From a virus (taxonomy: Duplodnaviria; Heunggongvirae; Uroviricota; Caudoviricetes): a stretch of 15,937 nt of DNA. How positions within the stretch are numbered: the first letter of the stretch is position 1; every line of letters starts with the position of its first letter. The notes beneath the pieces are model-generated. The model was given only the letters and a program-made list of their open reading frames with translations, searched no databases and had not been told where the DNA came from. The stretch is taken from the IMG/VR virus record IMGVR_UViG_2529292909_000010; one strand, given 5' to 3'. Below, piece after piece: positions 1,419 through 8,255 of this stretch. Position numbers and translations under genes: made by a program.

Positions 1419-3338
1419 TTAAAAATCAGCCTGACTCGGGATCAGTTTTTGCCAGATAACTGAAACGTATTTTGCCTGGTAACGGGCGTCATCAAGTGCA
1501 TTATGGCGCTCACCTTCGAATGGAATAGCCGTTCTGGCATCGAAGTCTATGGCTTTCCCCAGCTCAACGATTGTGCGTACATCGCGATCGTTGTAGTAAC
1601 GCCACGGGCAGGGGATCCCCTGCCGTTCGTATGAACGGCGCAAAATCGTGTTGTCGAAGTTGGCTCCATTTCCCCAGACCTGAACAAAAAATTCACCGGA
1701 GTTTTCGTCGATAAATTCCCGCAATTGTAACAGTGCATCATCTAACGGGATTTCATCGGTCATAATGGCAGATTGCGCTTCGCGTGATTGCTTAAGCCAC
1801 CATTTAATGGTGTCCCGATCAATGACTCCGCCAGCAGTTTCCAGATCGATAGTCTTACTAAATTCCGGTCCCATATCTCCGGTTTGCGGATCGAAAAATA
1901 TTGCACCTATTGAGATGATCGGGGCATCAGGATTTTTTCCCATGGTTTCAAGGTCGATCATTAGATGGTCACACGTCCTGCTGGTGGATGTGATTTCTTG
2001 ATGACCGTTCACCTTAATTGAGTGATCTGCCGTCTCGCCAGTTTCATTATCGCTATCGTGATGCTGATTGCCGCCAGTGTTCTCTTTGTGTGGATGTTCA
2101 GCGCCTTCCATTTCCTCCGGATCATCTTCCTGAACTTCAACCTGATACTCTTCATCGAATGTTTCCTGGTATGTTGCGTCGCCCATCACCGCGCCACAAT
2201 CAGGGCAGTTGCCGCCGCCGGTCTGACCGCAGGCGGTGCAGATCTTTTCCGGTTCCTGTTGCACTACTGGTTCAGGTTGTTTCGTTTCTGGCTCGTTTTG
2301 TTGCGTACTTGGGCTGTTTTGTTCCGCTTTCTGGTCGTTCTGTTCCGTTTCTTGCTGGTTCTGGTTCACAGAATCGCGGGTCTGGATCCCATTAACCCAT
2401 TTCGGATCATTCGGGTCGCTAATCCCTTCAACAAATTCACCACGTGATACTGCAAGCAGTTCATCGGCGTCAGGCTGGCTGATATTGGCTGCCTGCATAA
2501 TTTTGTTTACTTCGTCAGCGGTAACTTTTACTGACCCTGGTTGTGCGGTCGTGTCAGATGCACCAGTATTTTGTTGTGAACCTGAGTATGTACCGTTTTT
2601 GCGGGCGAAATATTCTTCTTTCGTGATTTCAGTAGCCCCAGCAGACAGCGCCTTATCCAGACCAGAAAGTTTGTTTGCGCGACCGTATTTTTCGCCATCC
2701 TTGTCGGTGAAGAGGAAGTAGAACGGCCCCTCACGTTCTACAGATGGTTCGACTTCCACTTTGCATTCGGTTTTTTCGTTGTCTGGAATTGCCGTTTCCA
2801 CTGCATCAGTTTCTGGTACTGGCGACGAGAGAGTATCAGTTGCGCTCTGATTTGTTCCTTCATCTTCAAACACGCCCTTTGTAGTCAGGTATTCAGTAAT
2901 GTATTTGTTCAGTGCCACAGGGTCTTTGTGAATGTCGATCGGACGTTCACGGACAAGGCCAAAAATAGTCTGGCGGTCGTAGCGAAGGGCATCAGGCTGT
3001 TTGCGCATTGATGCCGAGATACGCTTCCAGTCTTCGCGGTCGTTGTCGATAACTTCATTTTTTGCCCAGCGATGGATGCTGCCGTCAATGTTTCCGGCAT
3101 CCACATCACCAGGCCAGAGAGCGTAGGCCAGTTCGTCATCTAGTGTTTTCCATGTCTGCTTGTATTCGCGATGAATGGCAGCAATGACCGGGTTGATTTT
3201 TCCTGTTGAATTTTCAGTGTGCTGTTGATTGGCTCTGGCGCGGGCGAGATCAACAACAGACGTGTATTTTCCGGCTTCCTTGCGTTCACCTTCGCGACGT
3301 TTTTCCAGATGCGCATCTCTGCCTGAATTTCGGGCCAT
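1419..3338 (-). CDS. Phage exonuclease with C-terminal DEDDh 3'-5' exonuclease domain (639-aa ORF; true N-terminus uncertain)
   Basis: C-terminal about 180 aa carry DEDDh-like motifs (MIDLETMG; WGNGANFD; HNALDDARYQAKY). The centre is an acidic/Gln-rich low-complexity linker containing a CxxC...CxxC zinc-ribbon-like element (CTACGQTGGGNCPDCG). No clear Shine-Dalgarno before the ATG at 3338, and the first about 200 bp overlap the upstream ORF out of frame. Confidence 0.7.
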   Translation of the reverse strand: MARNSGRDAHLEKRREGERKEAGKYTSVVDLARARANQQHTENSTGKINPVIAAIHREYKQTWKTLDDELAYALWPGDVDAGNIDGSIHRWAKNEVIDNDREDWKRISASMRKQPDALRYDRQTIFGLVRERPIDIHKDPVALNKYITEYLTTKGVFEDEGTNQSATDTLSSPVPETDAVETAIPDNEKTECKVEVEPSVEREGPFYFLFTDKDGEKYGRANKLSGLDKALSAGATEITKEEYFARKNGTYSGSQQNTGASDTTAQPGSVKVTADEVNKIMQAANISQPDADELLAVSRGEFVEGISDPNDPKWVNGIQTRDSVNQNQQETEQNDQKAEQNSPSTQQNEPETKQPEPVVQQEPEKICTACGQTGGGNCPDCGAVMGDATYQETFDEEYQVEVQEDDPEEMEGAEHPHKENTGGNQHHDSDNETGETADHSIKVNGHQEITSTSRTCDHLMIDLETMGKNPDAPIISIGAIFFDPQTGDMGPEFSKTIDLETAGGVIDRDTIKWWLKQSREAQSAIMTDEIPLDDALLQLREFIDENSGEFFVQVWGNGANFDNTILRRSYERQGIPCPWRYYNDRDVRTIVELGKAIDFDARTAIPFEGERHNALDDARYQAKYVSVIWQKLIPSQADF

Positions 3339-5824: not shown

Positions 5825-5893
5825 TTAGGCAATCCCTACTCTCGAAGCGTTAGGCATAGCCTATTGACAATCGCATTAGGCTAAGCCTAATAT
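5825..5893 (+). promoter_or_regulatory. Rightward early promoter (PR-like) with three OR-like operators
   Basis: TTGACA (5864-5869), 18-nt spacer, TAATAT (5888-5893). Operators at about 25-bp spacing: TTAGGCaatcCCTAc (5825-5839), TTAGGCataGCCTAt (5850-5864, touching the -35) and the near-perfect palindrome TTAGGCtaaGCCTAA (5876-5890, overlapping the -10). Confidence 0.6.
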
Positions 5894-6724: not shown

Positions 6725-7795
6725 ATGGCTAACGCCTGGCTCAGATTATGGCATGACATGCCAAATGACCCTAAGTGGCGAACAATTGCCAGGGTGTCAG
6801 GGCAGCCAATTGCAACAGTGATGGCAGTGTATATCCACCTCCTGGTGAGCGCGTCACGAAATGTCACGCGAGGTCACATTGATGTCACGACAGAAGATTT
6901 GGCAAGTGCGCTCGACGTGACAGAAGAGGTAATTGATTCAATTTTGCAGACGATGCAGGGGCGGGTACTTGATGGTGATTTAATCACTGGATGGGAAAAA
7001 CGCCAGGTGCTTAAAGAGGACAACGGCAATATTTCGCAAACCGCAAAATCTCCTGCAGAGCGCAAGAGGGCGCAGCGAGAGAGGGAAAGAAAGCGGGAAC
7101 AAAATGGCGATTGTCACGGCGCGTCACGAAATGTCACGCACATGTCACGACGAGTCACGACAGATAAAGATACAGATAAAGATACAGATCAAGAAGATCA
7201 AAACACTATGGTCCATGGCGTAAAAAACGCCACGAACCAGGCAGGGGATGTTCAGACCGTCAATCTTGGTCAGCCAGCAGGCACGACACCGGAAGCCGAT
7301 TCAGCGTATGCGCTGAAAGCCGATTCGGGCGCTGTGCAGCAGGTGATGACCGCAAGGCCGGAGCAATCACACCAACTGCAGCAGCCCGAAGCCGATTCTG
7401 CCATTCAGCGGGAAGCCGATCGGGTAGTCCCGGAAAACACCGGGCAGTCTGTGGGACGAGTGGATTATCCGGATGTGTTCGAACAGGTCTGGCGGGAGTA
7501 CCCGTTGCGTGCTGGGGCAAACCCGAAGAAATCCGCTTTCAGTGCCTGGAAGGCCAGATTACGCGAGGGGGTGCCACCAGAGGCCATGCTGGATGGCGTG
7601 AGGCGTTACGCAAGATACTTGGCGGCTACCGGGAAAACGGGAACGGAATTTGTTCAGCGAGCGACGACGTTTTTTGGACCGGACCGGAATTTTGAAAACC
7701 CCTGGTTGCTCCCGGTAAGCGGCACGAACAACCAGCGTTGTGTTAATCATATTTCTGAACCGGACACCGAAATTCCGCCGGGATTCAGAGGGTAA
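6725..7795 (+). CDS. Replication initiator (YdaU/O-like) with embedded iteron origin
   Basis: ATG at 6725 with AAGAGGTGAG Shine-Dalgarno (ORF track starts at a GTG at 6719); N-terminal region resembles YdaU-type phage replication proteins (recollection); two GTCACG iteron clusters and an AT-rich repeat lie inside the gene, as in lambda O. Confidence 0.65.
   Translation: MANAWLRLWHDMPNDPKWRTIARVSGQPIATVMAVYIHLLVSASRNVTRGHIDVTTEDLASALDVTEEVIDSILQTMQGRVLDGDLITGWEKRQVLKEDNGNISQTAKSPAERKRAQRERERKREQNGDCHGASRNVTHMSRRVTTDKDTDKDTDQEDQNTMVHGVKNATNQAGDVQTVNLGQPAGTTPEADSAYALKADSGAVQQVMTARPEQSHQLQQPEADSAIQREADRVVPENTGQSVGRVDYPDVFEQVWREYPLRAGANPKKSAFSAWKARLREGVPPEAMLDGVRRYARYLAATGKTGTEFVQRATTFFGPDRNFENPWLLPVSGTNNQRCVNHISEPDTEIPPGFRG
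6851..6890. repeat. Iteron cluster 1: four GTCAC(G/A) repeats at about 10-bp phasing
   Basis: GTCACG at 6853, 6863 and 6884, GTCACA at 6873; the 19-bp string gcgtcacgaaatgtcacgc is identical to 7121-7139. Confidence 0.6.
7111..7210. repeat. Iteron cluster 2 (five GTCACG at 10-11-bp phasing) plus adjacent AT-rich tandem repeat; putative replication origin
   Basis: GTCACG at 7113, 7123, 7133, 7144 and 7154, followed by cagataaagatacagataaagatacagatcaagaagatc (12-bp unit repeated twice, AT-rich). Confidence 0.6.
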
Positions 7796-7832: not shown

Positions 7833-8255
7833 GTGGCAAAAGTTTTTACACAAGAAGAGCGGGAAAAAATTAAAGGGCAGGTTGTTGAACTCGTACGCCA
7901 GAGTGGGCGCGAGACGTTACGACAACTGGAAACTAAAACTGGGGCAACAAGATATCTGATGAGCGTTCTGGCCAGAGAGCTGGTTGCCAGTGGCGATGTA
8001 TACAATTCTGGCTACGGGTTATTCCCGTCTGAACAGGCTCGTAAAGACTGGCAAAATGCCCGCAAAAAACTCTCAAGGGCAAAGCTGAAGAAACCATCTG
8101 CGGTTGATCCGGACCTTATCTGGTCATTACCAGATGGCGAAATACGCCGCTACGACAGGCGTCTGAACATAATCTGTCTCGAGTGCCGGAAGAGCGAAGT
8201 TATGCAGCGCGTACTGGCGTTTTATCAGGGGAATTTTGAGGAGGTGGTGCGGTGA
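7833..8255 (+). CDS. Hypothetical protein (140 aa), replication-module associated
   Basis: GTG start with strong CAGGAGGG Shine-Dalgarno; lies where a helicase loader would be expected but is too small and shows no Walker motifs. Confidence 0.55.
   Translation: MAKVFTQEEREKIKGQVVELVRQSGRETLRQLETKTGATRYLMSVLARELVASGDVYNSGYGLFPSEQARKDWQNARKKLSRAKLKKPSAVDPDLIWSLPDGEIRRYDRRLNIICLECRKSEVMQRVLAFYQGNFEEVVR

Follow-up and report, generated by a model that had tools for sequence, protein, structure and literature searches.

The replisome organizers of phages TP901-1 and Tuc2009 bind direct repeats located inside their own genes, and these repeats constitute the replication origin (PMC8965321). In phage SPP1, oriL lies within gene 38 and consists of repeats in direct orientation along with an AT-rich unwinding element, which are bound by gp38 (PMC6316719). 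Likewise, the ori of lambda, and that of Stx phages, occupies the middle of the initiator gene O, with iterons followed by an AT-rich tract (PMC7466680). Here, we describe a locus with a comparable layout in the Caudoviricetes record IMGVR_UViG_2529292909_000010, of which a stretch of 15,937 nucleotides (nt; hereinafter, the window) was analyzed. The window is part of a lambda-like Escherichia coli prophage, approximately 96% identical to the induced phages vB_EcoS-689R5 and Tritos, and carries a gene for a 356-amino-acid (aa) protein labeled "phage replisome organizer" in NCBI sources. We consider it very likely that positions 7113 to 7205 of this gene are the prophage replication origin, embedded in the gene of its own initiator. 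Such an in-gene origin is a known arrangement, which seems to be undescribed for this very common proteobacterial family; a literature search for GTCACG iterons or for an origin description in the family found nothing. What is unusual is the second, co-varying repeat cluster in the domain-coding sequence, the apparent two-residue recognition code and a repeat tract conserved across phyla. The elements of the locus are as follows:

6725-7795, plus strand: initiator gene encoding the 356-aa "phage replisome organizer" (from the open reading frame list; ATG at 6725, stop codon ending at 7795)
6725-7024, plus strand: coding sequence of the N-terminal winged-helix domain, aa 1-100
6853-6889, plus strand: repeat cluster 1, GTCACG at 6853, 6863, and 6884 and GTCACA at 6873, spacing 10, 10, and 11 nt (from the sequence)
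6916-6921, minus strand: hexamer in inverted orientation (top strand, CGTGAC), 27 nt past cluster 1 (from the sequence)
7052-7102, plus strand: coding sequence of a predicted basic helix, aa 110-126 (PAERKRAQRERERKRE), which is proposed to read the hexamer
7113-7159, plus strand: repeat cluster 2, GTCACG at 7113, 7123, 7133, 7144, and 7154, spacing 10, 10, 11, and 10 nt (from the sequence)
7160-7205, no strand: AT-rich tract, purine-rich on the top strand, ACAGATAAAGAT in 2.9 copies (7160-7194) followed by GATCAAGAAGATCAAAAC; proposed unwinding element
7209-7239, no strand: imperfect palindrome with 13-nt arms and a 5-nt loop, TGGTCCATGGCGT-aaaaa-ACGCCACGAACCA (inverted repeat I11), directly after the AT-rich tract
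7457-7792, plus strand: coding sequence of the C-terminal domain, aa 245-356, a presumed recruiter of the helicase or helicase loader (predicted local distance difference test [pLDDT] above 85)

The repeat anatomy outlined by an earlier, sequence-only reading of the window is confirmed, with several amendments, one of them being the inverted copy at 6916-6921, which that reading had overlooked. All 5 GTCACG copies that it had placed in cluster 2, at a phasing of about 10 bp, are present. The 4 copies that it had counted in cluster 1 are regularly spaced but comprise 3 exact copies and the GTCACA variant, and the identical core shared by the 2 clusters measures 21 nt rather than 19 (GCGCGTCACGAAATGTCACGC, at 6849-6869 and 7119-7139). 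Similarly, the AT-rich tandem repeat behind cluster 2 exists, in 2.9 copies and not just 2. As for the repeated SRNVT/VTT peptides that it had noted, the 21-nt word does yield ASRNVT twice, but the hexamer passes through all 3 reading frames (as CH, SR, and VT) because its period is 10 or 11 nt. GTCACG occurs 14 times in the window versus 5.9 expected, a count reached in none of 200 shuffles, and 10 of the copies fall within 310 bp, against an expectation of 0.115 (Poisson P ~1e-16). Chance is excluded as the source of this clustering. The complete genome of Tritos (46 kb, 96% identical) contains these 2 GTCACG clusters only. DnaA boxes were considered and rejected as an element of the locus: they are no more frequent in the window than expected (14 near-matches versus 14.2) and none lies at 6850-7240, from the repeats to the AT-rich tract; ATATCCACC, just upstream of cluster 1, stems from Ile-His codons and is not conserved elsewhere.

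Homologous genes were collected by scanning one genome per species, which gave 44 loci from Shigella, E. albertii, Serratia, Rahnella, Pantoea, Erwinia, Enterobacter, Pseudomonas, Marinobacter, Gilvimarinus, Aquitalea, Chromobacterium, Bordetella, Acidovorax, Castellaniella, Pseudothauera, and others. A scan of viral contigs with protein alignment gave near-identical E. coli loci only, and the diversity considered here comes from the one-genome-per-species set. Across the 44 loci, the N-terminal 125 residues are 50% to 74% identical, and the C-terminal halves are often different. About 20 homologues carry GTCACG at gene positions 129, 139, 149, and 160 and again, in 3 to 5 copies, near 380-430. 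Hexamers are retained at equivalent positions in some 30 homologous genes of gamma- and betaproteobacteria, and cluster 2 comprises 3 to 5 copies in all homologues that could be typed. The density of GTCACG is 16.1 per kb in the module versus 0.38 per kb in the flanking 3 kb.

Synonymous sites under the hexamers are nearly frozen. In 18 genes sharing 61% to 87% DNA identity, codons with their third base in a hexamer were compared with 44 other conserved codons: synonymous-codon entropy was 0.12 bits in the former and 1.47 bits in the latter (Mann-Whitney p = 5.6e-6). Under the hexamers, Val, Thr, Gly, and His have a single codon each (GTC, ACG, GGT, and CAC, respectively; 100% in each case), whereas other residues of equal conservation use 4 to 6 codons. 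The same holds for the inverted copy, over which Val65 is encoded by GTG in 18/18 homologues having Val at this position. The constraint is confined to the 6-nt core, with the spacers between hexamers varying freely, and the hexamers start in all 3 codon phases (63/46/41). This comparative pattern shows that selection acts on the DNA and not on the peptide. The repeated peptides are thus a by-product of the DNA repeats, since synonymous sites are frozen, spacers are free, and all 3 frames are used.

The 2 clusters change together. The hexamer found in both is GTCACG in 23 loci, GTAACG in 6 (L102, L105, L112, L114, L129, and L132), and CGAACG in 3 to 4 (L109, L111, L113, and, in degenerate form, L117), with no discordant locus. 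As cluster 1 occupies codons for an N-terminal-domain loop of the very initiator, any change of origin specificity would have to alter the protein along with both sites. In cluster 1, insertions consist of 2-repeat units, such as the 21 nt, or 7 aa, present in E. albertii. The distance between clusters ranges from 250 to 350 bp among relatives; thus, strict helical phasing between them is not required.

Next to cluster 2, the low-GC tract extends to about position 7205 and is 72% A+T and 74% purine on the top strand, compared with 46% A+T for the whole gene. The sequence-only reading had placed an unwinding region here, and the least stable 30- to 40-bp duplex of the gene does fall at 7160-7205, directly adjoining cluster 2 and within the top 0.5% of the window. 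Among 33 homologues, the AGATA[AC] repeats of the tract begin at a distance of 2 nt from the final hexamer in 20 and of no more than 15 nt in 30, and the tract remains 62% to 78% A+T even where the genes are 59% to 68% G+C. It is translated in 2 different frames, giving DKDK in most homologues and QIREE in some. The tract of the window also contains 2 GATC (Dam) sites, at 7187-7190 and 7196-7199, 9 nt apart, at the position of which enterobacterial relatives carry GATCTAAAAGAT; control of origin firing by methylation or SeqA through these sites is conceivable.

The palindrome at 7209-7239 has the look of an intrinsic terminator on the minus strand. It encodes a conserved peptide, VHG(E/V)KNA, in a linker that is disordered elsewhere, and it is found again in L129, L131, and L132 at a protein identity of only 47% to 52%, which suggests conservation of the palindrome DNA itself. 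In lambda, too, a palindrome has been described after the AT-rich tract.

The order of elements at the locus, phased hexamers and then a distinctive tract, is that of the organizer genes of Gram-positive phages. As in r1t, Tuc2009, and TP901-1, the putative origin lies inside the organizer gene, between the parts encoding the N-terminal DNA-binding and the C-terminal regions of the protein. Read directly from the sequence, ORF11 of r1t contains GGAACC 4 times at 11-nt spacing and, 2 nt later, 3 copies of AGATAAGAATAGATT, that is, phased hexamers followed by an AGATAA-type tract as in the window gene. A DnaC-like loader gene follows ORF11, as it does in relatives of the window gene, although the window itself has none. 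The 2 systems differ in the core (GGAACC versus GTCACG) and in the hosts, which for the family of the window gene are Proteobacteria; moreover, r1t has neither a second cluster nor an inverted copy in the part coding for the N-terminal domain, both of which are present in the window family.

Besides that of r1t, 5 organizer genes from Gram-positive phages have phased hexamers followed by a C-poor repeat of the ACAGG(A/T)TAGG type; SPP1 gene 38 has 11-nt-phased repeats followed by a C-poor tract of the GATAAC type. The repeats-then-tract layout is seen in r1t, SPP1, ul36, Lj771, Javan274, a Latilactobacillus phage, and the window gene. SPP1 resembles the window also in having 2 separate binding regions for one initiator, oriL and oriR. 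However, oriR is located approximately 13 kb away and has an unwinding element of its own, whereas the second cluster of the window is 260 bp away in the same gene and lacks one. No significant sequence similarity was found between SPP1 gp38, the founding replisome organizer, and the window protein. In the satellite phage P4, ori is accompanied by crr, a second cluster kilobases away, and the alpha protein is a primase-helicase. The proteins of P4 and of RepA_N plasmids are unrelated to the window initiator, and the comparison with them is by fold match only.

The architecture had initially been likened to that of lambda O, which captures the layout (iterons and an AT-rich tract inside an initiator gene) but extends neither to the protein, which is not a homologue of lambda O, nor to the sites, which are not 19-bp dyad-symmetric elements. 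PF04492 did not match the window protein at E = 10 (lambda O itself, 6e-36), and the profile probability was 0.1%. The lambda iterons have dyad symmetry and bind O dimers; they are annotated as 18-bp elements at 39034, 39054, 39078, and 39101, spaced by 20 to 24 bp, whereas the sites of the window are asymmetric 6-bp cores spaced by 10 to 11 bp. Further differences are that lambda has no second iteron cluster in the domain-coding part and that a P-type loader gene stands directly downstream of O, where the window has a DUF977 or "Ren-like" gene and no P gene. The 2 systems nevertheless share a genome context of cI, cro, and then the initiator, the exchange of the N-terminal specificity domain and origin as a module, and the fact that extra iterons mean extra amino acids.

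Although the repeats could instead be regulatory sites, bound by the encoded protein or another regulator and serving autoregulation, a transcription roadblock inside the gene, or titration of the initiators of incoming related phages, with the origin located elsewhere, we regard this as unlikely. In favor of this view, cluster 1 has no adjoining low-stability tract, and cross-talk is plausible given that there are up to 4 copies of the module per E. coli genome. Cloned organizer origins of lactococcal phages indeed act as decoys that protect cells (PMC8965321). However, decoy and control effects would be consequences of an origin rather than alternatives to it. Furthermore, cluster 2 is always fused to the AGATAA-type tract, in about 30 loci, as are the repeats of Gram-positive organizer genes, some of which have a mapped origin, and the complete related phage genome offers no other repeat cluster as a candidate.

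We next consider the protein, using a full-length AlphaFold model and a model of the N-terminal domain only (pLDDT 80). The models predict helices at residues 2-14, 16-25, and 29-45, a loop at 46-55, helices at 56-63 and 67-77, and then a hairpin, together a winged helix. Its fold is nearest to the N-terminal domain of DnaD and to a RepA_N plasmid initiator. A disordered stretch, the basic helix at 110-126, disorder at 129-244, and a confidently modeled C-terminal domain follow. Cluster 1 encodes the end of helix 3 and a surface loop (aa 43-55), which has a lower pLDDT and is an indel hot spot; the alternative placement of cluster 1 in the wing was rejected, because in the model it precedes the helix-turn-helix and covers the last part of helix 3 and the loop at 46-55. 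The disordered linker (pLDDT below 50) holds cluster 2 together with the AT-rich tract and the palindrome. According to the models, both DNA elements thus occupy segments, one in a surface loop and the other in a disordered linker, where the protein tolerates nearly any sequence.

With repeat-encoded residues set aside, repeat type is tracked best by positions 110, 114, 117, and 121, which lie on one face of the basic helix; R113, R118, and R120 of the same helix are constant. For an independent sample, viral contigs were scanned for 3 phased copies of each hexamer, which gave 41, 12, and 13 distinct domains. At GTCACG loci, position 114 is Lys in 38 of 41 distinct domains and position 117 is Gln in 37 of them. 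CGAACG loci have Ala at 114 (13/13) and Trp at 117 (12/13), and GTAACG loci mostly have Val at 114, with Tyr, His, or Phe at 117. In addition, 34 of 50 organizer-like genes missed by the domain profile have R-V-x-x-[H/Y]-R-E-K ahead of their GTAACG arrays. The proposed helix code seems to apply not only in E. coli prophages but as far as organizer genes beyond the reach of N-domain profile detection. The link between helix and hexamer is not a coding artefact, because several CGAACG-type proteins keep Ala and Trp although their loop is not encoded by repeats. We infer, with shared ancestry as a caveat, that the hexamers are read by the basic helix, with the DnaD-like domain acting as an oligomerizing scaffold.

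That an origin lies inside the initiator gene had been surmised from the window and has since gained the support of synonymous-site conservation, co-switching clusters, the low-stability tract at cluster 2, inheritance as a module (see below), and an arrangement shared with r1t and with organizer genes of mapped origin. From these features, we infer a mechanism that involves binding, looping, melting, and recruitment of the helicase. The organizer, as an oligomer, would bind the 5 GTCACG cores of cluster 2, which occur once per helical turn and therefore all lie on one face of the DNA. The DnaD-like winged-helix domain would probably provide the oligomerizing scaffold, and K114 and Q117 of the basic helix probably read the variable half of the hexamer. 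Once the array is bound, the AGATAA-type tract next to it, at 7160-7205, would be strained and opened, after which the C-terminal domain would bring in DnaB, in this phage through host DnaC. At a distance of 260 bp upstream, cluster 1 and the inverted copy at 6916-6921 would provide this protein with another set of sites, and cluster 1 would most likely loop to cluster 2, either aiding assembly or limiting firing.

A more specific proposal is tentative and, taken jointly, on balance doubtful. It holds that the basic helix, and not the winged helix, reads the hexamers by a two-residue code (K114/Q117 for GTCACG; V with Y, H, or F for GTAACG; A/W for CGAACG), that the AGATAA/AGGTTA-type tract is a sequence-specific loading element, and that a specificity switch rewrites the protein and both sites. 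Phages of Proteobacteria and of Firmicutes alike have tracts of the AGATAA/AGGTTA type after the repeats.

Some database proteins share just aa 1-144 with the window protein and others just aa 158-356; the N-terminal domain and the basic helix thus travel with the 2 clusters as one module. One group sharing aa 1-144 only, with a different C-terminal half, was named by NCBI from E. coli O157 prophages ("DnaT-like ssDNA-binding domain-containing protein"). In the proteins sharing aa 158-356 only, an unrelated N-terminal domain is joined at ...DKNTMVHGEKNA. The recombinant break at aa 144-158 corresponds to about 7155-7200, right after the origin region. Examples of the junction, of one kind or the other, are P0032, P0041, P0047, P0057, and P0088; the unrelated N-terminal domain has the sequence MRDYAKVSPRFWLG....

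These breaks raise the possibility that the conserved DNA is mainly a recombination junction through which phages swap initiator halves. The proteins do break just past the AT-rich tract, and the palindrome is kept on the C-terminal side of the junction. Nevertheless, this explanation is very improbable: it leaves the once-per-turn hexamers, the second cluster in the N-terminal domain, the type switches affecting both clusters, and the link to helix residues unexplained, and junctions located at origins fit the origin reading. In lambdoid O genes, recombination junctions at origins are also seen.

The chance that the repeats are instead a feature of the protein, with SRNVT and VT motifs serving structure or a flexible linker and the DNA repetition a by-product, is slight indeed. 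In its favor, ASRNVT is duplicated and the acidic DKDT repeats resemble low-complexity linkers, but this idea is contradicted by the period of 10 to 11 nt, which runs through 3 frames, by synonymous positions that stay frozen amid drifting spacers and a drifting gene, by an AGATAA tract that is read in 2 frames, and by the position of the segments in predicted loops or disorder that are indel hot spots. Plasmid R1 parC consists of 2 sets of five 11-bp repeats, and the superficially similar layout of the window, 2 clusters of 4 or 5 direct repeats spaced by 10 to 11 bp, could suggest a centromere-like partition site, which is just as remote a prospect given that no partition gene is present among the window genes examined or annotated in the related phage, that the element integrates, and that, in dozens of genomes, the repeats accompany an initiator domain and are followed by an unwinding-type tract.

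Several points weigh against placing the origin at 7113-7205 or against parts of the mechanism. The tract has an A+T content of just 72%, and the window contains several intergenic stretches of lower stability. Some relatives (L108, L110, and L115) have 1 or 2 degenerate units beside the AT-rich tract and seemingly lack cluster 1, which therefore is accessory at most. The co-variation of the clusters and of the helix residues rests on few lineages and could partly be explained by shared ancestry or by gene conversion between clusters. Model confidence in the basic helix is moderate (pLDDT 51-72). No helicase-loader gene follows the initiator in the window or in close phage relatives, where DUF977 is found instead. 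In the full-length relatives L129 (3987-4736), L131 (3951-4694), and L132 (3972-4697), a DnaC-like (IstB_IS21) loader gene overlaps or abuts the initiator stop codon. Host DnaC is the presumed route to the helicase in the window phage, because no loader gene follows and yet these phages are inducible.

Finally, homology to characterized organizers is weak. The window protein aligns to PF09681 end to end (aa 5-123 to profile positions 1-119), albeit below threshold (16.6 versus 23.3 bits), and the match to TIGR01714 is likewise below threshold (15.4 versus 49.8 bits); r1t ORF11 and SPP1 gp38 themselves have no PF09681 match. In the C-terminal part, the region of an ARxxEG motif aligns weakly with r1t ORF11 (14% probability) and SPP1 gp38 (0.3%). 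With sequence homology this marginal, the window gene is filed as a probable, unproven remote member of the replisome organizers, the type nearest to it. As for annotation, the 356-aa protein matches phrog_3729 "replication initiation protein" in PHROGs (E = 7e-258), and aa 122-356 match phrog_1701 "DnaD-like helicase loader" (E = 3e-63). Pfam at default thresholds assigned no family to the protein, and the C-terminal DnaD-like or Phg_2220_C domain had no Pfam match in it. The last 24 residues resemble the tail of DnaT, and a 20-residue DnaT-like tail was the sole match in a sequence search of the PDB.

In the window, as in Tritos, the initiator gene comes after cI, cro (YdaS-like), and YdaT-like genes and is followed at 7833-8255 by a gene for DUF977 or "Ren-like" ("LygF"). 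The order in Tritos is integrase, excisionase, exonuclease VIII, dicB/DicF, cI, cro, YdaT-like, initiator, and DUF977, and the element, with an integrase and an excisionase, is an integrating one. A consensus scan identified one further feature upstream of the initiator gene:

5864-5893, plus strand: promoter-like site ahead of the cro-like gene, TTGACA, 18 nt, TAATAT

Judging from the lambdoid gene order, this site is likely the early rightward promoter, from which transcription would read through the initiator gene. A scan for internal promoters gave nothing above chance.

The N-terminal domain with the origin segment is present in 2078 of 5426 (38%) complete E. coli genomes, in up to 4 copies per genome and in 6 places on plasmids; the count covers the RefSeq labels under which the module is found, "hypothetical protein" and "DnaT-like ssDNA-binding domain-containing protein". 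Knowledge of the origin and its specificity classes could help to predict which co-resident prophages fire or titrate each other's origins and would provide a rational target for blocking prophage replication. The module could also serve in vector design as compact origin-plus-initiator cassettes. For replisome organizers in general, the comparative data yield 2 testable ideas, namely, a two-residue code in a basic helix and a conserved tract beside the binding sites.

Among 120 viral contigs with 3 phased GTCACG copies, 90 have them in or beside a homologue of the N-terminal domain, and approximately 12 more have them in the linker of other organizer-like genes, with a purine-rich repeat next to them. 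Of these, one distant gene with a GTCACG array passes PF09681 (28.3 bits) and has a DnaB_2 domain. Phased GTCACG copies are also found in apparently non-coding DNA of L164/L245, L203/L252, and L215, some with a nearby inverted GTGACA; these arrays may act as origins for elements that have their initiator gene at another place. In L380-L399 and others, putative phage initiators of another family have phased CGAACG arrays in their linkers, with upstream motifs such as ...GW.H.R...E..K..... Arrays of once-per-turn hexamers inside initiator genes thus seem widespread beyond the GTCACG-organizer family.

Deletion variants of the initiator gene occur naturally. The 302-aa variant P0020 lacks aa 135-188 (7127-7288), with which most of cluster 2 and the entire AT-rich tract are gone; because of this loss, prophages carrying P0020 are predicted to lack a working origin. 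A 36-nt direct repeat (peptide PEADSA...) is present at 7289-7324 and 7385-7420, 96 nt apart, and the 324-aa variants P0004-P0012 lack exactly the 32 residues between its copies, as a deletion between the repeats would give. Elsewhere in the window, a 21-nt tandem repeat (4 copies, 71% matches) is located at 2277-2360 inside a long minus-strand open reading frame at 1419-3338, which is presumably an exonuclease VIII-like gene, its repeat being unrelated to the origin module.

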